A DNA stretch of 32,000 nt from Nitrosopumilus maritimus SCM1 (GTDB lineage: Archaea; Thermoproteota; Nitrososphaeria; Nitrososphaerales; Nitrosopumilaceae), in NCBI RefSeq assembly GCF_000018465.1, contig NC_010085.1, forward strand, positions 300,001-332,000. The letters run 5' to 3'. This document shows, one piece after another, positions 18,105 through 29,695 of this stretch. Numbering within the stretch: position 1 is the first letter of the stretch; each line of letters begins with the position of its first letter. The position numbers were made by a program, and so were the translations under genes. The notes below the pieces were generated by a model, which saw nothing but the letters and a program-made list of their open reading frames with translations, made no database searches and was not told the origin of the DNA.

Positions 18105-18159
18105 AAAAGTATCAATTATACGTGATTATTAAATAGAAAATTATGTGTTTTTTGGTGTA

Positions 18160-19821
18160 ATGCGATTAATCTTAGGAATCACCCTAGTGTTAACAGCTTT
18201 TACACCACTTGCATTCAATGATGTTTTTGCTGATTCATTTAATGTGAGTTTTAATCAGGATAGTTATCAAACTGGTGACACACTAGTAATTTCTGGTCAA
18301 ATAATTGATTTTGGAATGCCTGTCATTGCTATGAGTATATTTGATCCTGATGAAAAAATCCTCACTGCAAATAGTTTAGAACTTTCTTCTGATGGTAGTT
18401 TCTCAAAAACCATTCCTTTAGAGTCTCCATTTTATGAAATGTCTGGAGATTATCTCATAAAATTAGACTATGGACAAGTCACTGAAGAACATAACTTTGT
18501 AATTGGTGACATTATTTCTGAATCTGAAATTGCTCCTCAGGAGGTTGTTGCACTTGAAATTATGTCTCTCTATACTGAAAAAGAGCATTACTTTGATGGT
18601 GATACAGTCAACATTTTTGGAACTGTGTCATCCATAGATTCTCCTACTATTCTCATAGGAGTTCATGATCCATTTGGAACTCCTGCTGGATTTTATTTTG
18701 GAAATATAAACAATAACTTGGAGTTTTCCACAAACTTTCTAATCAAAGATGGAGTGAATTTTAAAGCTGAAGGAACTTACTCGATTAAAGCTCATTATGC
18801 TGAAACTAGTGTAGAATACTTCTTTGAATATTCTGCAGAATCATCTACAGAAACACAAACAACTGAAGACACAACACAAACAACTGAAGACACAACACAA
18901 ACAACTGAAGACACAACACAAACAACTGAAGACACAACACAAACAACTGAAGACACAACACAAACAACTGAAGACACAACACAAACAACTGAAGACACAA
19001 CACAAACAACTGAAGACACAACACAAACAACTGAAGACAATATACCTAGAGAATCTGTTGAAGAAAAAATAGTTTCACAAAATGAAGCAATAACTGAAAC
19101 AATAAATGAAAAAACAGAAACTGAAACAAAAATTATTACAAAAGAAACTCAAACAAAAAATGATTCTGAAAATATTTTAGAAAATGAAGAACATGATAAT
19201 CTTTCTGTAGAAGATATTGAGCTTGGAAAATTATTAAATCAAATTAATCTCGATTGTGATTCTAGCACTTTTGTTGATACTATTTCTTACTATGATGGTA
19301 TGGGTCCTGCACTTTACAGATTATGTCAATTTGATAGTTCTTTGAATTTTTTTAATGAGTCTTTGACTAGTGATCCTGATAATGTTGAAATTCTTGTCAA
19401 TAAAGGGTCTACACTAGGAAAAATTGGATTTGTTTCTGAAGCAATAGCATATTATGATCATGCTATCTCTCTTGATCCCCAATACCTGCCTGCAAAAAAT
19501 AACAAAGCAAATGCCTTGGCTAATCTTGGAAATCTTGATGATGCCATTTTACTCTACAATGAAATCTTAGAGGAAAATACGAATTACTATACTGCAAGAA
19601 CAAATCTCAATACTGCATTATTACTAAAATCTGAAACTTCTGAAACTTCTGATGTGATAAGTACTGTTAAATCTGAAATTGAAACTTCACCTGAAAATAC
19701 TTCACCTGAAAACATTTTCCCTGAAAAAACAATCTCAACAGAAAACAAAAATGAAACACAATCAAACTTTTTTGAAGAATTAACTCGTGTATTTTCATCT
19801 TTGTTTGGTTTTACTGAGTGA
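18160..19821 (+). CDS. Secreted protein: two N-terminal modules like those of the PEFG proteins, a TTEDTTQ repeat linker, and C-terminal TPR repeats
   Basis: The ORF track starts at GTG 18145. ATG 18160 gives the signal peptide MRLILGITLVLTAFTPLAFNDVFA and sits ~25 nt after the TATA-like attattaaatag. TPR-like helices run from ALYRLCQFDSSLNFFNESL to LNTALLL. Confidence 0.8.
   Translation: MRLILGITLVLTAFTPLAFNDVFADSFNVSFNQDSYQTGDTLVISGQIIDFGMPVIAMSIFDPDEKILTANSLELSSDGSFSKTIPLESPFYEMSGDYLIKLDYGQVTEEHNFVIGDIISESEIAPQEVVALEIMSLYTEKEHYFDGDTVNIFGTVSSIDSPTILIGVHDPFGTPAGFYFGNINNNLEFSTNFLIKDGVNFKAEGTYSIKAHYAETSVEYFFEYSAESSTETQTTEDTTQTTEDTTQTTEDTTQTTEDTTQTTEDTTQTTEDTTQTTEDTTQTTEDTTQTTEDNIPRESVEEKIVSQNEAITETINEKTETETKIITKETQTKNDSENILENEEHDNLSVEDIELGKLLNQINLDCDSSTFVDTISYYDGMGPALYRLCQFDSSLNFFNESLTSDPDNVEILVNKGSTLGKIGFVSEAIAYYDHAISLDPQYLPAKNNKANALANLGNLDDAILLYNEILEENTNYYTARTNLNTALLLKSETSETSDVISTVKSEIETSPENTSPENIFPEKTISTENKNETQSNFFEELTRVFSSLFGFTE
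18853..19038. repeat. Perfect 21-bp tandem repeat, ~9 copies (acaacacaaacaactgaagac), in-frame coding for TTEDTTQ
   Basis: aactgaagac recurs at 18861, 18882, ... 19029 with an exact 21-nt period. No substitutions were seen. Confidence 0.95.
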
Positions 19822-26057: not shown

Positions 26058-26291
26058 ATGCCCCTTTATTGTAAACAATGTGAAGAGAGACGCTATCCTC
26101 AGTATAGCGCAGACGACAAGGGAACTTTGTGGTTATGCAACAAATGTCAAAATTATGCTGATGCTGAGGATGTGATTATTAGAGAACAAACTCAAGAAGA
26201 GAGAGATGAGATCAAGGCAAAAGCTGAAGAGTTTGAGAGAACTAGCAAGTTTTCAGGCGAAAAACTTTCTAGAAGAAAGGGTGTAAACTAA
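26058..26291 (+). CDS. Small zinc-ribbon protein
   Basis: 77 aa. CKQC...CNKC pair followed by a charged helical tail. Confidence 0.6.
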   Translation: MPLYCKQCEERRYPQYSADDKGTLWLCNKCQNYADAEDVIIREQTQEERDEIKAKAEEFERTSKFSGEKLSRRKGVN

Positions 26292-26294
26292 ACC

Positions 26295-26474
26295 ATGGGA
26301 TTCAAGGACCTTTTTGTTGGTGGAAATTCTGAGAACATTCCAGTTAAAGTACAATGTACTGGATGCCAAAGAATCACTGTAGTCAAAATTCCATCTAACA
26401 AACCATTTCAAAAATGGAATGAAAAGGCAAGTTGCAGTCATTGTAATGCAACTAACTGCTGGCAAAAAGTTTGA
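26295..26474 (+). CDS. Small zinc-ribbon protein (59 aa, below the ORF-track cutoff)
   Basis: ATG lies 3 nt after the upstream stop. Translation is MGFKDLFVGGNSENIPVKVQCTGCQRITVVKIPSNKPFQKWNEKASCSHCNATNCWQKV, with a CxxC...CxxC pair. It competes with the implausible antisense ORF 26253..26465. Confidence 0.45.
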   Translation: MGFKDLFVGGNSENIPVKVQCTGCQRITVVKIPSNKPFQKWNEKASCSHCNATNCWQKV

Positions 26475-26497
26475 TTTTAAAAAATAAGAAAAAAAGA

Positions 26498-28084
26498 TTA
26501 GTTTGCAGGAACTGCAATACCTCTATCTATCATCTTTAGTGCAGTATCAGCTTTTAGACACATTGCTACACCATTTGATGTTTTCATGACAAGACTGTAT
26601 CCTTCACGACATTCTACCTCTGATGCATCAACACCAGCTGCAATCTGAATTCGTGGAGAAATCCATGCTAGTTGCATGTCTTTTGCCTTTTCAATGAATT
26701 CTTCTCTAAGTTGTTGTTTCTCTTCACTAGTCATCTCTGCTGCTCTTTCACGAAGTTCTGATTTGAAAGCCTTCATCTCTGCAATTCTATCATGAATCAT
26801 AGATTTTCTTTCATCAGAGACACTGTGTTTCATCTTTTTCATGTGTTCTTTGAACTTCATCTTTAATTCAGAATGTTTCTTGTCAAGATCACCATATTTT
26901 TCACGATATTTTTTCTTGATTTCATCCATTCTTTCATCTGAGATGTCATATTTTGTCATGATCATTGCTTTGAGATGTTTAGATTTTTCTGAAAATTTCA
27001 TGTCATGATGTTTTTCCATCATTTTCTCCTTCATGGAATCATGATGTTTCTTTTTGTAGTCTGCTTTTTCTTCAGGAGTCATAGAACACCAATTAGAAAT
27101 TCTATCGAGTTTTACTGCATCTGTAATTTCTGCAGCACGATCTGATTCAGACATTGCACATAGTTTGTCATAATTCATATGATGTTTTTTCTCATGCATT
27201 TTTTCTTTCATGTGTGCTTTGTATGTCTCTAGATTATCTTTGATGAATGTTTTTCGTTCAGCTTCGTCAGCTTCACAATATGTATTCATCTTTGTTTGGT
27301 GCTCTTCGGTTTTGTCATGCTCAGCAATGTATGCCTTTTTGTCTTCATCAGACATTACACAATAATTCTCTAGTTTTTCTCTAAAATCTACTGCATGATC
27401 TCTTTTGTAGTCAGCTGCATATTTTTTGATGGCAGTTTTGATTTCTCCTTTGTAATTTTCCAAAAGATCCTCAACTGCATCTTGTTCTTCATCAGACATT
27501 TCACAATAGTTTGTTAGTCTATCTCTGAATTGCTCAAGTATGGGACGGTCTGCAAATAATTTGCGTTTATCCTCATCGGTAGCTGCACAAAATCTGTCTA
27601 ACAAATCTCCAAGATCATATTCACCATCATGTTCTTTTTCTCCAGGGAAATTCTCTCTGATAAATTCATCAATGGCATCATCTCTTTCATCTTCAGACAT
27701 TTCACAATAATTTGCTAATCTGTCTGCAAACTGTTCAATCCTTGGATGGTCTGCAAAGAACTGACGTTTTTCCTCATCAGTCATCTCACAGAAATGCTCT
27801 AATCTGTCATCAAGATCTGCATGTTTATCGTATCTATCATCGTCATCGTATCTATCATCGTCATCGTATCTATCATCGTCATCGTATCTATCATCGTCAT
27901 CGTATCTATCATCGTCATCGTATCTATCATCGTCATCGTATCTATCATCGTCATCGTATCTATCATCGTCATCGTATCTATCATCATCCATGTCATCATC
28001 TACTTGTGCAAAAGCAGGACCTGCAGATACACCAAGTACCAAAATCATGGATAAAACAACGCTTAGAAGTTGTGTACTATTCAT
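26498..28084 (-). CDS. Secreted, highly acidic repeat protein: RYDDDD x9, then 8 single-Cys helical repeats, His/Met-rich blocks, and a two-Cys C-terminal module
   Basis: 528 aa. Signal peptide MNSTQLLSVVLSMILVLGVSAGPAFA. Repeats are of the form L..YCEMSDEE[KR]. HMKEKMHEKKHHM and KKHHDSMKEKMMEKHHDM blocks are present. I recognise no family. Confidence 0.8.
   Translation of the reverse strand: MNSTQLLSVVLSMILVLGVSAGPAFAQVDDDMDDDRYDDDDRYDDDDRYDDDDRYDDDDRYDDDDRYDDDDRYDDDDRYDDDDRYDKHADLDDRLEHFCEMTDEEKRQFFADHPRIEQFADRLANYCEMSEDERDDAIDEFIRENFPGEKEHDGEYDLGDLLDRFCAATDEDKRKLFADRPILEQFRDRLTNYCEMSDEEQDAVEDLLENYKGEIKTAIKKYAADYKRDHAVDFREKLENYCVMSDEDKKAYIAEHDKTEEHQTKMNTYCEADEAERKTFIKDNLETYKAHMKEKMHEKKHHMNYDKLCAMSESDRAAEITDAVKLDRISNWCSMTPEEKADYKKKHHDSMKEKMMEKHHDMKFSEKSKHLKAMIMTKYDISDERMDEIKKKYREKYGDLDKKHSELKMKFKEHMKKMKHSVSDERKSMIHDRIAEMKAFKSELRERAAEMTSEEKQQLREEFIEKAKDMQLAWISPRIQIAAGVDASEVECREGYSLVMKTSNGVAMCLKADTALKMIDRGIAVPAN
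27826..27987. repeat. Perfect 18-bp tandem repeat, ~9 copies (cgtatctatcatcgtcat on the plus strand), coding for RYDDDD on the minus strand
   Basis: cgtatc recurs at 27829, 27847, ... 27973 with an exact 18-nt period. Confidence 0.95.
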
Positions 28085-28211
28085 TGAATTTTTTTAGGGT
28101 TTTTGATATAAAGAGATGCGTATCTTTGTAGAGGATCTTTTATTATCTATGAGAAATTTGATGAGGTTTTTGTGCCTAAATCCTTAAGTTCAAAATTGTT
28201 CTATAGAATTT

Positions 28212-29461: not shown

Positions 29462-29695
29462 ATGGCTGAAATCTGTGAGAGATGCAGTAAATCCGTAGAT
29501 GAAACTGCTAGATATAACAAACATGAAGTAGACAAACTACTTTGTTCTGCTTGCATTTCAGAGATTGATGAATATTATTCCATTACTTGTGCAAAATGTG
29601 GCAAACCTGCTCATATGAGAGGAAATTTGATTGAATATGAGAATGAAAAGATTTGTCCTGTATGTATGGATGAAATAAGAATAAAAGAAAATTAA
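29462..29695 (+). CDS. Small double zinc-ribbon protein
   Basis: 77 aa with four CxxC pairs (CERC, CSAC, CAKC, CPVC). Confidence 0.65.
   Translation: MAEICERCSKSVDETARYNKHEVDKLLCSACISEIDEYYSITCAKCGKPAHMRGNLIEYENEKICPVCMDEIRIKEN

Follow-up and report, generated by a model that had tools for sequence, protein, structure and literature searches.

A secreted modular protein family of Nitrosopumilaceae with paired-Cys hairpins, His/Met-rich linkers and a WING-49 domain: a candidate metal buffer of the cell envelope

Introduction

This report concerns a gene in a 32,000-nucleotide (nt) stretch of the genome of Nitrosopumilus maritimus SCM1 (NC_010085.1, positions 300,001 to 332,000; the whole stretch is called the window, and its own numbering is used throughout) and the protein of 528 amino acids (aa) that the gene encodes. 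We conclude with high confidence that the product is a Nitrosopumilaceae-specific, secreted and modular envelope protein, which was previously uncharacterised. As to its function, we tentatively propose that it may be a tethered, multi-site buffer for metal, probably copper, which would bind through His/Met-rich linkers and have its Cys residues as staples and its C-terminal WING-49 domain for docking; the proposal is drawn from composition, conservation and domain sharing. The predicted parts are a signal peptide, a hypervariable acidic tail, four Cys-bearing hairpins, two His/Met linkers, a basic stalk and WING-49 (Table 1).

Results

The gene and its family

Comparison with two orthologs (L001 and L002) gave ratios of nonsynonymous to synonymous substitution rates (dN/dS) of 0.11–0.20, i.e., purifying selection, and this indicates that the open reading frame (ORF) 26498–28084 is a real gene. 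The features listed by a first-pass annotation made from the DNA letters, namely the positions of the Cys residues, DDDMDDDRY followed by eight copies of DDDDRY, the His/Met blocks and a segment starting ECREGYSLV at residue 491, agree with the translation. Its assumptions of secretion, of an ammonia-oxidising archaeal host and of a modular build with a distinct two-Cys module at the C-terminus were also borne out: the signal peptide and its AFA cleavage site are conserved, with L6, L7, S8, G18, V19, A21, G22 and A26 invariant or nearly so and a predicted helix at residues 3–16, and the homologs all belong to Nitrosopumilus or Nitrosarchaeum. The whole protein has an isoelectric point (pI) of 4.76 and a net charge of about -50, which is distributed very unevenly, residues 28–345 carrying about -57 and residues 346–470 being basic (pI 9.3). 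The ten Cys residues are at positions 99, 127, 166, 194, 242, 270, 309, 333, 492 and 509.

In what follows, Cys and motif counts refer to 121 homologs, conservation to an alignment of 66 sequences, and local hidden Markov model (HMM) searches to 768 kb of Nitrosopumilaceae DNA. A search with residues 87–528 returned 509 clusters at E ≤0.001, the named ones all from Nitrosopumilus or Nitrosarchaeum, and an exhaustive profile search of 1.84 billion representatives returned 755 proteins at E ≤0.001, 52 of them at E ≤1e-30; the exact 528-aa protein is absent from a collection of 15 billion proteins. When species-representative genomes were scanned, 70 loci were obtained, all in Nitrosopumilaceae-type genomes, a scan that relies on exact peptide patterns and thus does not prove absence from other lineages. 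The mapping of distribution proposed in the first-pass annotation therefore confines the family to Nitrosopumilaceae among the genomes scanned, and judged by these sequence searches the family occurs only in the marine and freshwater ammonia-oxidising archaea of this group.

Cys residues paired in helical hairpins

The eight Cys repeats form four units of two Cys each, in which the Cys residues are spaced 28, 28, 28 and 24 residues apart. The Cys motif was found in 509 units across the homologs, a recurrence that greatly exceeds chance, with Cys 100% conserved and the consensus L-[DE]-x-[YF]-C-E-[ML]-[TS]-D-E-E-[KR]; in unit 4 of the 528-aa protein, C309, W332, C333, M335 and T336 are nearly invariant. 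Spacing within a pair is quantized (28 in 292 cases, 24 in 128 and 27 in 56), and spacing between pairs varies widely. The number of Cys residues ranges from 8 to 16 across the family, showing that the number of hairpin units varies freely, and is even in 117 of the 121 homologs, the exceptions being truncated or mis-started sequences. In the AlphaFold2 (AF2) model, each unit consists of four consecutive helices, those of unit 1 being modelled with a predicted local distance difference test (pLDDT) value of 90–96, and the Cys residues of a unit sit where its first and third helices end. On our reading of this topology, the two Cys-bearing helix ends would point the same way, given the short loops.

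Two details of the repeats bear on the role of their residues. The Met two residues past Cys is exchanged for Leu or Ile in 22–48% of units, which points to a packing residue rather than a ligand. In all 11 copies of the motif M[ST]xEE[KR], three Cys-less ones included, S, T or D stands directly before a predicted helix start, and the motif is therefore best regarded as a hydrophobic staple combined with a helix N-cap box. The generic nature of such a box explains why a profile of the hairpin unit, when compared with PDB sequences, picked up only the protein A helix start NLNEEQRNAFI, a match that was rejected as homology. The even counts, the quantized pairs and the existence of a sister family that is often free of Cys favour structural disulfides over thiol ligands, and the repeat Cys residues are probably disulfide staples rather than metal ligands, as far as sequence and model allow a judgement.

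The sister family consists of small (~160–290 aa) secreted Nitrosopumilus proteins from metagenomes (P0260, P0284-P0353, P0196, P0244 and P0261), which have 0–2 copies of the C-x27-C hairpin and Cys-less repeats of the LTPEEREAK type. The number of Cys residues was 0 in 35, 2 in 28 and 4 in 9 of 77 members. Many members have precomputed DUF3106 matches, and some have KHxGMTGMSGEYD repeats. His and Met together make up 9.6% of residues, and the sister family stays thus rich in them even where Cys is absent.

A separate two-Cys insert of the pattern [FY][ED]DCVEAGYP[IV]MES[FY]PEQCxTDDGxVF (C-x15-C) was observed at residues ~30–60 of many homologs (e.g., P0006, P0021 and P0037) and is absent from the 528-aa protein; a Cys spacing of 15 was seen 48 times in the 121 proteins. 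The insert is not recognised by NCBIfam, nor by Pfam in the members scanned.

His/Met-rich linkers

Individual positions of both His/Met blocks are conserved. In block 1, H291 is kept in 74%, M292 in 95%, M296 in 91%, H302 in 86% and M303 in 77% of the aligned sequences; in block 2, H347 is kept in 91%, H348 in 70% and M351 in 71%, and position 356 is His or Met in 74%; past block 2, M374 and M376 are kept in 100% and 89%, respectively. The family mean of His plus Met is 9.8% (minimum 7.5%) versus 4.4% (maximum 7.0%) in the 24 other proteins of the window, and spacings of the HxxM, MxxH and MxxxM type are ~5-fold denser in the family than in the same 24 proteins. Block 2 is the densest His+Met window of the protein (clustering p ~0.015 versus shuffled sequences), and residues 352–382 have low pLDDT. 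The His/Met blocks noticed in the first-pass annotation are thus conserved and non-random. Segments rich in His and Met are also found beside the same hairpin in divergent proteins: HGHMEGM linkers in P0169, a distant full-length relative; HMKDKMMDKM in P0254; and the KHxGMTGMSGEYD repeats in P0196, P0261 and P0281.

Basic stalk and WING-49 domain

The part of the family that is most conserved is residues 363–528, comprising the basic core (stalk) and WING-49. The core consists of two long helical hairpins with Cys-less helix starts (SDER and TSEEK), and its invariant residues are K372, M374, I389, K392, G398, R433, K441, R445, F463 and K468. WING-49 (NCBIfam NF058652) was recognised with an E value of 1.2e-17 and 63.8 bits against a cutoff of 22, covering positions 1–48 of the 49 in the profile, and likewise in six other members of the family; C492 and C509 are invariant, and strands are predicted at residues 496–501 and 507–511. 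The name WING-49 is mentioned by no paper found in our literature search.

The domain is not restricted to this family. Only five candidates came from an indexed query of a 54-aa alignment of WING-49, and local HMM searches, used in its place, found the domain in three other proteins, confirmed by both NCBIfam and Pfam: at the C-terminus of a plastocyanin-like cupredoxin (L030), directly after the signal peptide of a pyrroloquinoline quinone (PQQ) glucose/sorbosone dehydrogenase (L017), and inside a Kazal/SNase protein (L068). These proteins share with the 528-aa protein the pattern P..Q...G......C.EG..L..K.SNG..C and a placement adjacent to a terminus. They differ in that the family of the 528-aa protein ends DRGI(A/V)VPAN, whereas the three other aligned WING-49 proteins share RGW, and in that the rest of the 528-aa protein is unrelated to the cupredoxin, the dehydrogenase and the Kazal/SNase protein. 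In the search of representatives, P0220 combines a cupredoxin, an acidic linker and WING-49, P0147 combines HYR repeats, a cupredoxin, the family's entire basic stalk and WING-49, and many other proteins have WING-49 without a recognisable domain. Other sub-lineages have the same stalk and WING-49 with Lys-rich tails (P0224, P0237, P0238 and P0243). From its sequence occurrence, WING-49 looks like a promiscuous module of the secretome, generic to the envelope; its presence at either terminus of unrelated secreted proteins suggests a docking or retention role there, and we consider envelope retention or docking, so deduced from occurrence, its most likely function.

One further carrier, P0270 (244 aa, without a Pfam domain), has a Met/His/Asp-rich stretch DSMRMEGIDSMRMDHEDDDGMRMDHGNDDDDMKMMMDH, so that acidic and Met/His runs co-occur in a second, unrelated WING-49 protein.

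Comparison with known families

Scans of the whole protein against Pfam, NCBIfam and PDB sequences gave WING-49 as the sole match. The predicted structure was compared with the PDB by Foldseek, as had been proposed in the first-pass annotation, and no family with a known function was matched: the full AF2 model gave 0 matches, the hairpin region being entered within this full-length model, and the best hit of a core model had an E value of 0.35 and a TM-score <0.3.

A likeness by motif exists to DUF3106 (Pfam PF11304), whose helical repeats have helix starts of the form hydrophobic-S/T-P/D-E-E-R/K, as in the Cys hairpins. DUF3106 matches the hairpin region in 46 of the 66 homologs at E ≤0.01 (best E 1.3e-8), with scores of 25.8–35.7 bits in some of them versus the gathering threshold of 24.3. 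The 528-aa protein itself has no DUF3106 match at E up to 10 and falls short of that threshold, and it is therefore described here as DUF3106-like and not as a member. To our knowledge, a conserved Cys pair is not a feature of DUF3106, which is itself uncharacterised; a literature search gave nothing useful on its function. The earlier label "unknown family" thus fails for the C-terminal module, which is WING-49, and for the hairpins, which match DUF3106 in 46 of the 66 homologs.

Extracytoplasmic all-helical hairpins with repeated S/T-x-x-E/Q helix starts are also known from the Spy/CpxP/ZraP (LTXXQ) proteins, some of which respond to metals. The 528-aa protein differs from them in having no structural match in the PDB, and the motif likeness is explained by generic N-capping; Pfam LTXXQ and Metal_resist gave no match at E up to 10 for the 528-aa protein and none at E up to 0.01 for the 66 homologs.

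Helices of SilE and PcoE bind Ag+/Cu+ through His and Met residues spaced i to i+3 or i+4 (PMC5008109). The 528-aa protein resembles these proteins in being secreted and His/Met-rich, with such spacings in (pro-)helical, partly disordered segments that offer multiple potential low-affinity sites, and it has the elementary motifs HxxM, MxxH and MxxxM. It differs in that no homology was found by the Pfam, NCBIfam and PDB sequence scans, in that the SilE composite motifs are missing, and in that it is ~4 times larger and mostly folded, with disulfide-type hairpins, a basic stalk and WING-49; its gene also has no resistance-operon context.

Acidic tail and tandem repeats in the DNA

The tail (pLDDT <50 in the AF2 model) is encoded at 27827–27985 by a perfect 18-nt tandem repeat of 8.8 copies, 100% identical according to Tandem Repeats Finder. 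Such perfection indicates a very recent expansion, and its copy number may be mis-sized in the assembly, as can happen to a perfect repeat of 159 bp when short reads are assembled. In orthologs that are 84–87% identical elsewhere, the tail is not repetitive, yet acidic; other lineages have independently expanded units of their own (HDDEK ×7, DDDKDDRH ×5 and TDDDRYE ×4); and it is almost absent in Nitrosarchaeum-labelled members and short in many others. Judged from these sequences, the tail is conserved as a property and not as a sequence, and it is hypervariable among relatives and lies outside the conserved core. The first-pass description "extremely acidic" accordingly finds no support as a core trait.

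A second perfect in-frame repeat was observed at 18852–19039, inside the ORF 18145–19821 (+): a 21-nt unit in 9.0 copies, 100% identical, encoding TQTTEDT ×9. The ORF encodes 558 aa, with a hydrophobic segment at the N-terminus of the product. The occurrence of two such perfect minisatellites in coding sequence over 32 kb suggests that repeats are either actively expanding in the secreted proteins of this genome or were smoothed by the assembly.

Coordinates, neighbouring genes and truncated copies

Table 1. Positions of the gene, of its flanking signals and of the predicted parts of the encoded protein
Feature	Residues	Position in the window	Strand	Remarks
Complete gene, 528-aa secreted modular protein	1-528	26498..28084	(-)	Stop codon included; from the ORF list
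TATA-like box TTTATAT		28106..28112	(-)	22-28 nt 5' of ATG; from sequence
Signal peptide MNSTQLLSVVLSMILVLGVSAGPAFA	1-26	28007..28084	(-)	A-F-A cleavage motif
Polyacidic disordered tail	28-86	27827..28003	(-)	VDDDMDDDRY + 8 x DDDDRY
Hairpin unit 1	89-150	27635..27820	(-)	Cys99 + Cys127 (C-x27-C)
Hairpin unit 2	157-226	27407..27616	(-)	Cys166 + Cys194 (C-x27-C); helical extension
Hairpin unit 3	230-290	27215..27397	(-)	Cys242 + Cys270 (C-x27-C)
His/Met block 1, HMKEKMHEKKHHM	291-303	27176..27214	(-)	
Hairpin unit 4	304-344	27053..27175	(-)	Cys309 + Cys333 (C-x23-C, shorter variant)
His/Met block 2, KKHHDSMKEKMMEKHHDM	345-362	26999..27052	(-)	HxxM, MxxxM, MxxH, HxxM
Conserved basic helical core (stalk)	363-470	26675..26998	(-)	pI ~9.3
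WING-49 domain	477-524	26513..26656	(-)	Cys492 + Cys509; small beta-hairpin, helix, strand
Oligo-T tract TCTTTTTTTCTTATTTTTT		26470..26497	(-)	Directly after the TAA stop; from sequence

The TATA-like box is a candidate archaeal promoter, which would yield a leaderless or short-leader mRNA, and the oligo-T tract TCTTTTTTTCTTATTTTTT is a candidate archaeal terminator. In the window, the gene lies among those for a nitroreductase, UDG and LeuRS and among small Zn-ribbon ORFs. The genes that recur across the 70 loci are those for UDG (31 loci) and nitroreductase (19 loci) alone, and this recurrence is positional synteny only. The contexts of distant relatives were uninformative; one of these relatives is near, but separated from, an NMT1-type ATP-binding cassette (ABC) system. 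Three small ORFs flank the gene, at 26058–26291 (+; 77 aa), 26295–26474 (+; 59 aa) and 29462–29695 (+; 77 aa), which have paired, zinc-ribbon-like CxxC motifs and no NCBIfam match. In L001 and L002, which are the closest relatives, ~3 kb of additional DNA not present in the window separates the orthologs of the first two ORFs.

Short, core-only copies were considered as a minimal functional unit and rejected. These copies (L052:5926-6720, L064:5992-6588 and L057:6341-7156) are 5'-truncated, have no signal peptide and are located directly downstream of DDE transposases (IS240-like, DDE_Tnp_4 and DDE_Tnp_1), which marks them as gene fragments and not minimal paralogs; the same genomes also have a full-length copy. 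In the L057 fragment, a His/Met repeat is expanded (HNEMKEK ×4), and a gene for a 475-aa plastocyanin-like protein follows.

Discussion

According to the mechanism that we favour, the Sec-secreted protein would sit in the cell envelope (pseudo-periplasm) of Nitrosopumilaceae, where each hairpin unit would probably be stapled by one disulfide, and the His/Met linkers, aided by surrounding carboxylates, would bind soft or borderline metal ions at multiple low-affinity sites. Copper would be the obvious candidate in an ammonia oxidiser, and the protein would serve as an envelope-tethered metal buffer or relay, with structural Cys residues and WING-49 for docking. The grounds for a metal-related function are the conserved His and Met positions, the raised His+Met content, the fact that His/Met richness follows the hairpin across architectures, and the occurrence of WING-49 and the family core on cupredoxins (L030, P0147 and P0220). 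Ammonia-oxidising archaea rely on copper enzymes (PMC7785015).

Several results weigh against this mechanism. Pfam, NCBIfam, PDB sequence and Foldseek comparisons with the PDB showed no likeness in sequence or fold to any characterised metal-binding protein. The His and Met residues show no clear single helical face (p 0.79 for block 1 and ~0.05–0.065 for block 2), and the composite motifs shown to be important in SilE (PMC5008109), HxxMxxxHxxM and MxxHx5-6HxxM, are found nowhere in the 528-aa protein and in 0–1 of the 121 family members; the context rich in Lys, Glu and Met could merely reflect charged amphipathic helices. No copper genes are linked by neighbourhood, the neighbours in the window and at the 70 loci being unrelated housekeeping genes, and there is no excess of cupredoxin genes close to family members (6 in 768 kb). 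Our literature search found no paper naming the 528-aa protein and no data on expression or metal response that could be linked to the gene.

The principal rival of the metal buffer is a structural role in which the protein would be an envelope scaffold, spacer or tether, anchored by WING-49 and the basic stalk, and in which the hairpin array and the charged tail would form an extended polyampholyte, either organising or filling the pseudo-periplasm or touching the acidic S-layer. We regard this role as possible, if doubtful. It agrees with the location of the strongest conservation, which is in the stalk and WING-49 and not in the His/Met blocks or the acidic tail, with the free variation of hairpin number and tail length, with the Lys-rich tails that replace acidic ones on the same stalk and WING-49, with the cupredoxin carried by the stalk in P0147, and with the lack of a functional gene neighbourhood in the loci compared; it leaves unexplained, however, the 90–100% conservation of individual His and Met positions and the persistence of His/Met richness beside the hairpin in unrelated architectures. 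After it rank, in descending order, a chaperone, a polyanion, a thiol ligand and a substrate-binding protein (SBP). An ATP-independent envelope chaperone of the Spy/CpxP/ZraP type, which would hold unfolded proteins by means of LTxxQ-like helix starts and might be modulated by metal, seems improbable to us: the repeated M[ST]xEE[KR] helix starts and helical hairpins, the DUF3106 matches of the homologs (an LSPEER-type repeat) and the LTPEEREAK repeats of the sister family speak for it, but LTXXQ and Metal_resist did not match even at the permissive E value given above, Foldseek found no likeness to the Spy, CpxP and ZraP structures in the PDB, and the helix-start motif is a generic N-cap box that matches protein A as well.

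Similarly improbable is a calsequestrin-like concentrator of cations with high capacity and low affinity, in which the acidic tail and hairpins would, close to the membrane, draw in NH4+, Ca2+, Mg2+ or trace cations. The charge of residues 28–345 fits this idea, and the independent expansion of different acidic units in different lineages suggests that acidity itself has been selected, but the conserved core is basic, and because Nitrosarchaeum members have hardly any tail and many others a short one, cation concentration cannot be the core function of the family. That the eight repeat Cys residues are free thiols coordinating Cu(I) or another soft metal, i.e., that the single-Cys repeats singled out in the first-pass annotation are ligands, is very improbable: Cys is fully conserved within the units and two residues would be brought close in each, and yet the residues come as pairs of fixed spacing and in even numbers, the protein is extracytoplasmic in an aerobe, and nearly half of the sister-family members examined (35/77) dispense with Cys but retain the repeats and stay rich in His and Met. 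An ABC-transporter SBP or a periplasmic ligand-binding sensor is effectively refuted. Only database names speak for it: several homologs are named "ABC transporter substrate-binding protein" at NCBI (P0020, P0021, P0029, P0037, P0053 and others; e.g., WP_179361116.1, the ortholog of N. cobalaminigenes, and WP_300326288.1), and the N. adriaticus ortholog (strain NF5, WP_048118051.1) is named "Periplasmic ligand-binding sensor protein" in UniRef. Neither Pfam nor NCBIfam finds an SBP domain in the 528-aa protein or the 66 homologs, the model is all-helical with a 50-aa module, and no transporter genes (permease or ATPase) adjoin the gene in the window; the SBP naming is probably a propagated misannotation.

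The metal-buffer proposal can be extended to the view, which we consider unlikely, that the family supplies the missing part of copper handling in the envelope of marine ammonia-oxidising archaea. Stapled hairpins docked by WING-49 would then capture scarce copper in the pseudo-periplasm with their His/Met linkers and acidic tail and pass it to the many cupredoxins and copper enzymes that carry WING-49 themselves; if this were true, WING-49 would be a lineage-specific address tag by which copper proteins are gathered into a neighbourhood on the cell surface.

Marine ammonia-oxidising archaea drive nitrification in the ocean and depend on copper enzymes, and how copper is captured and distributed outside their membrane is not settled. 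The gene described here defines a large Nitrosopumilaceae-specific family, whose hairpin is used also by a sister family. Should the protein bind metal, it would be a direct and testable candidate for buffering copper in the envelope; should it not, it would still be a conserved but uncharacterised envelope component of archaea; and in either case WING-49 is a candidate localisation tag.

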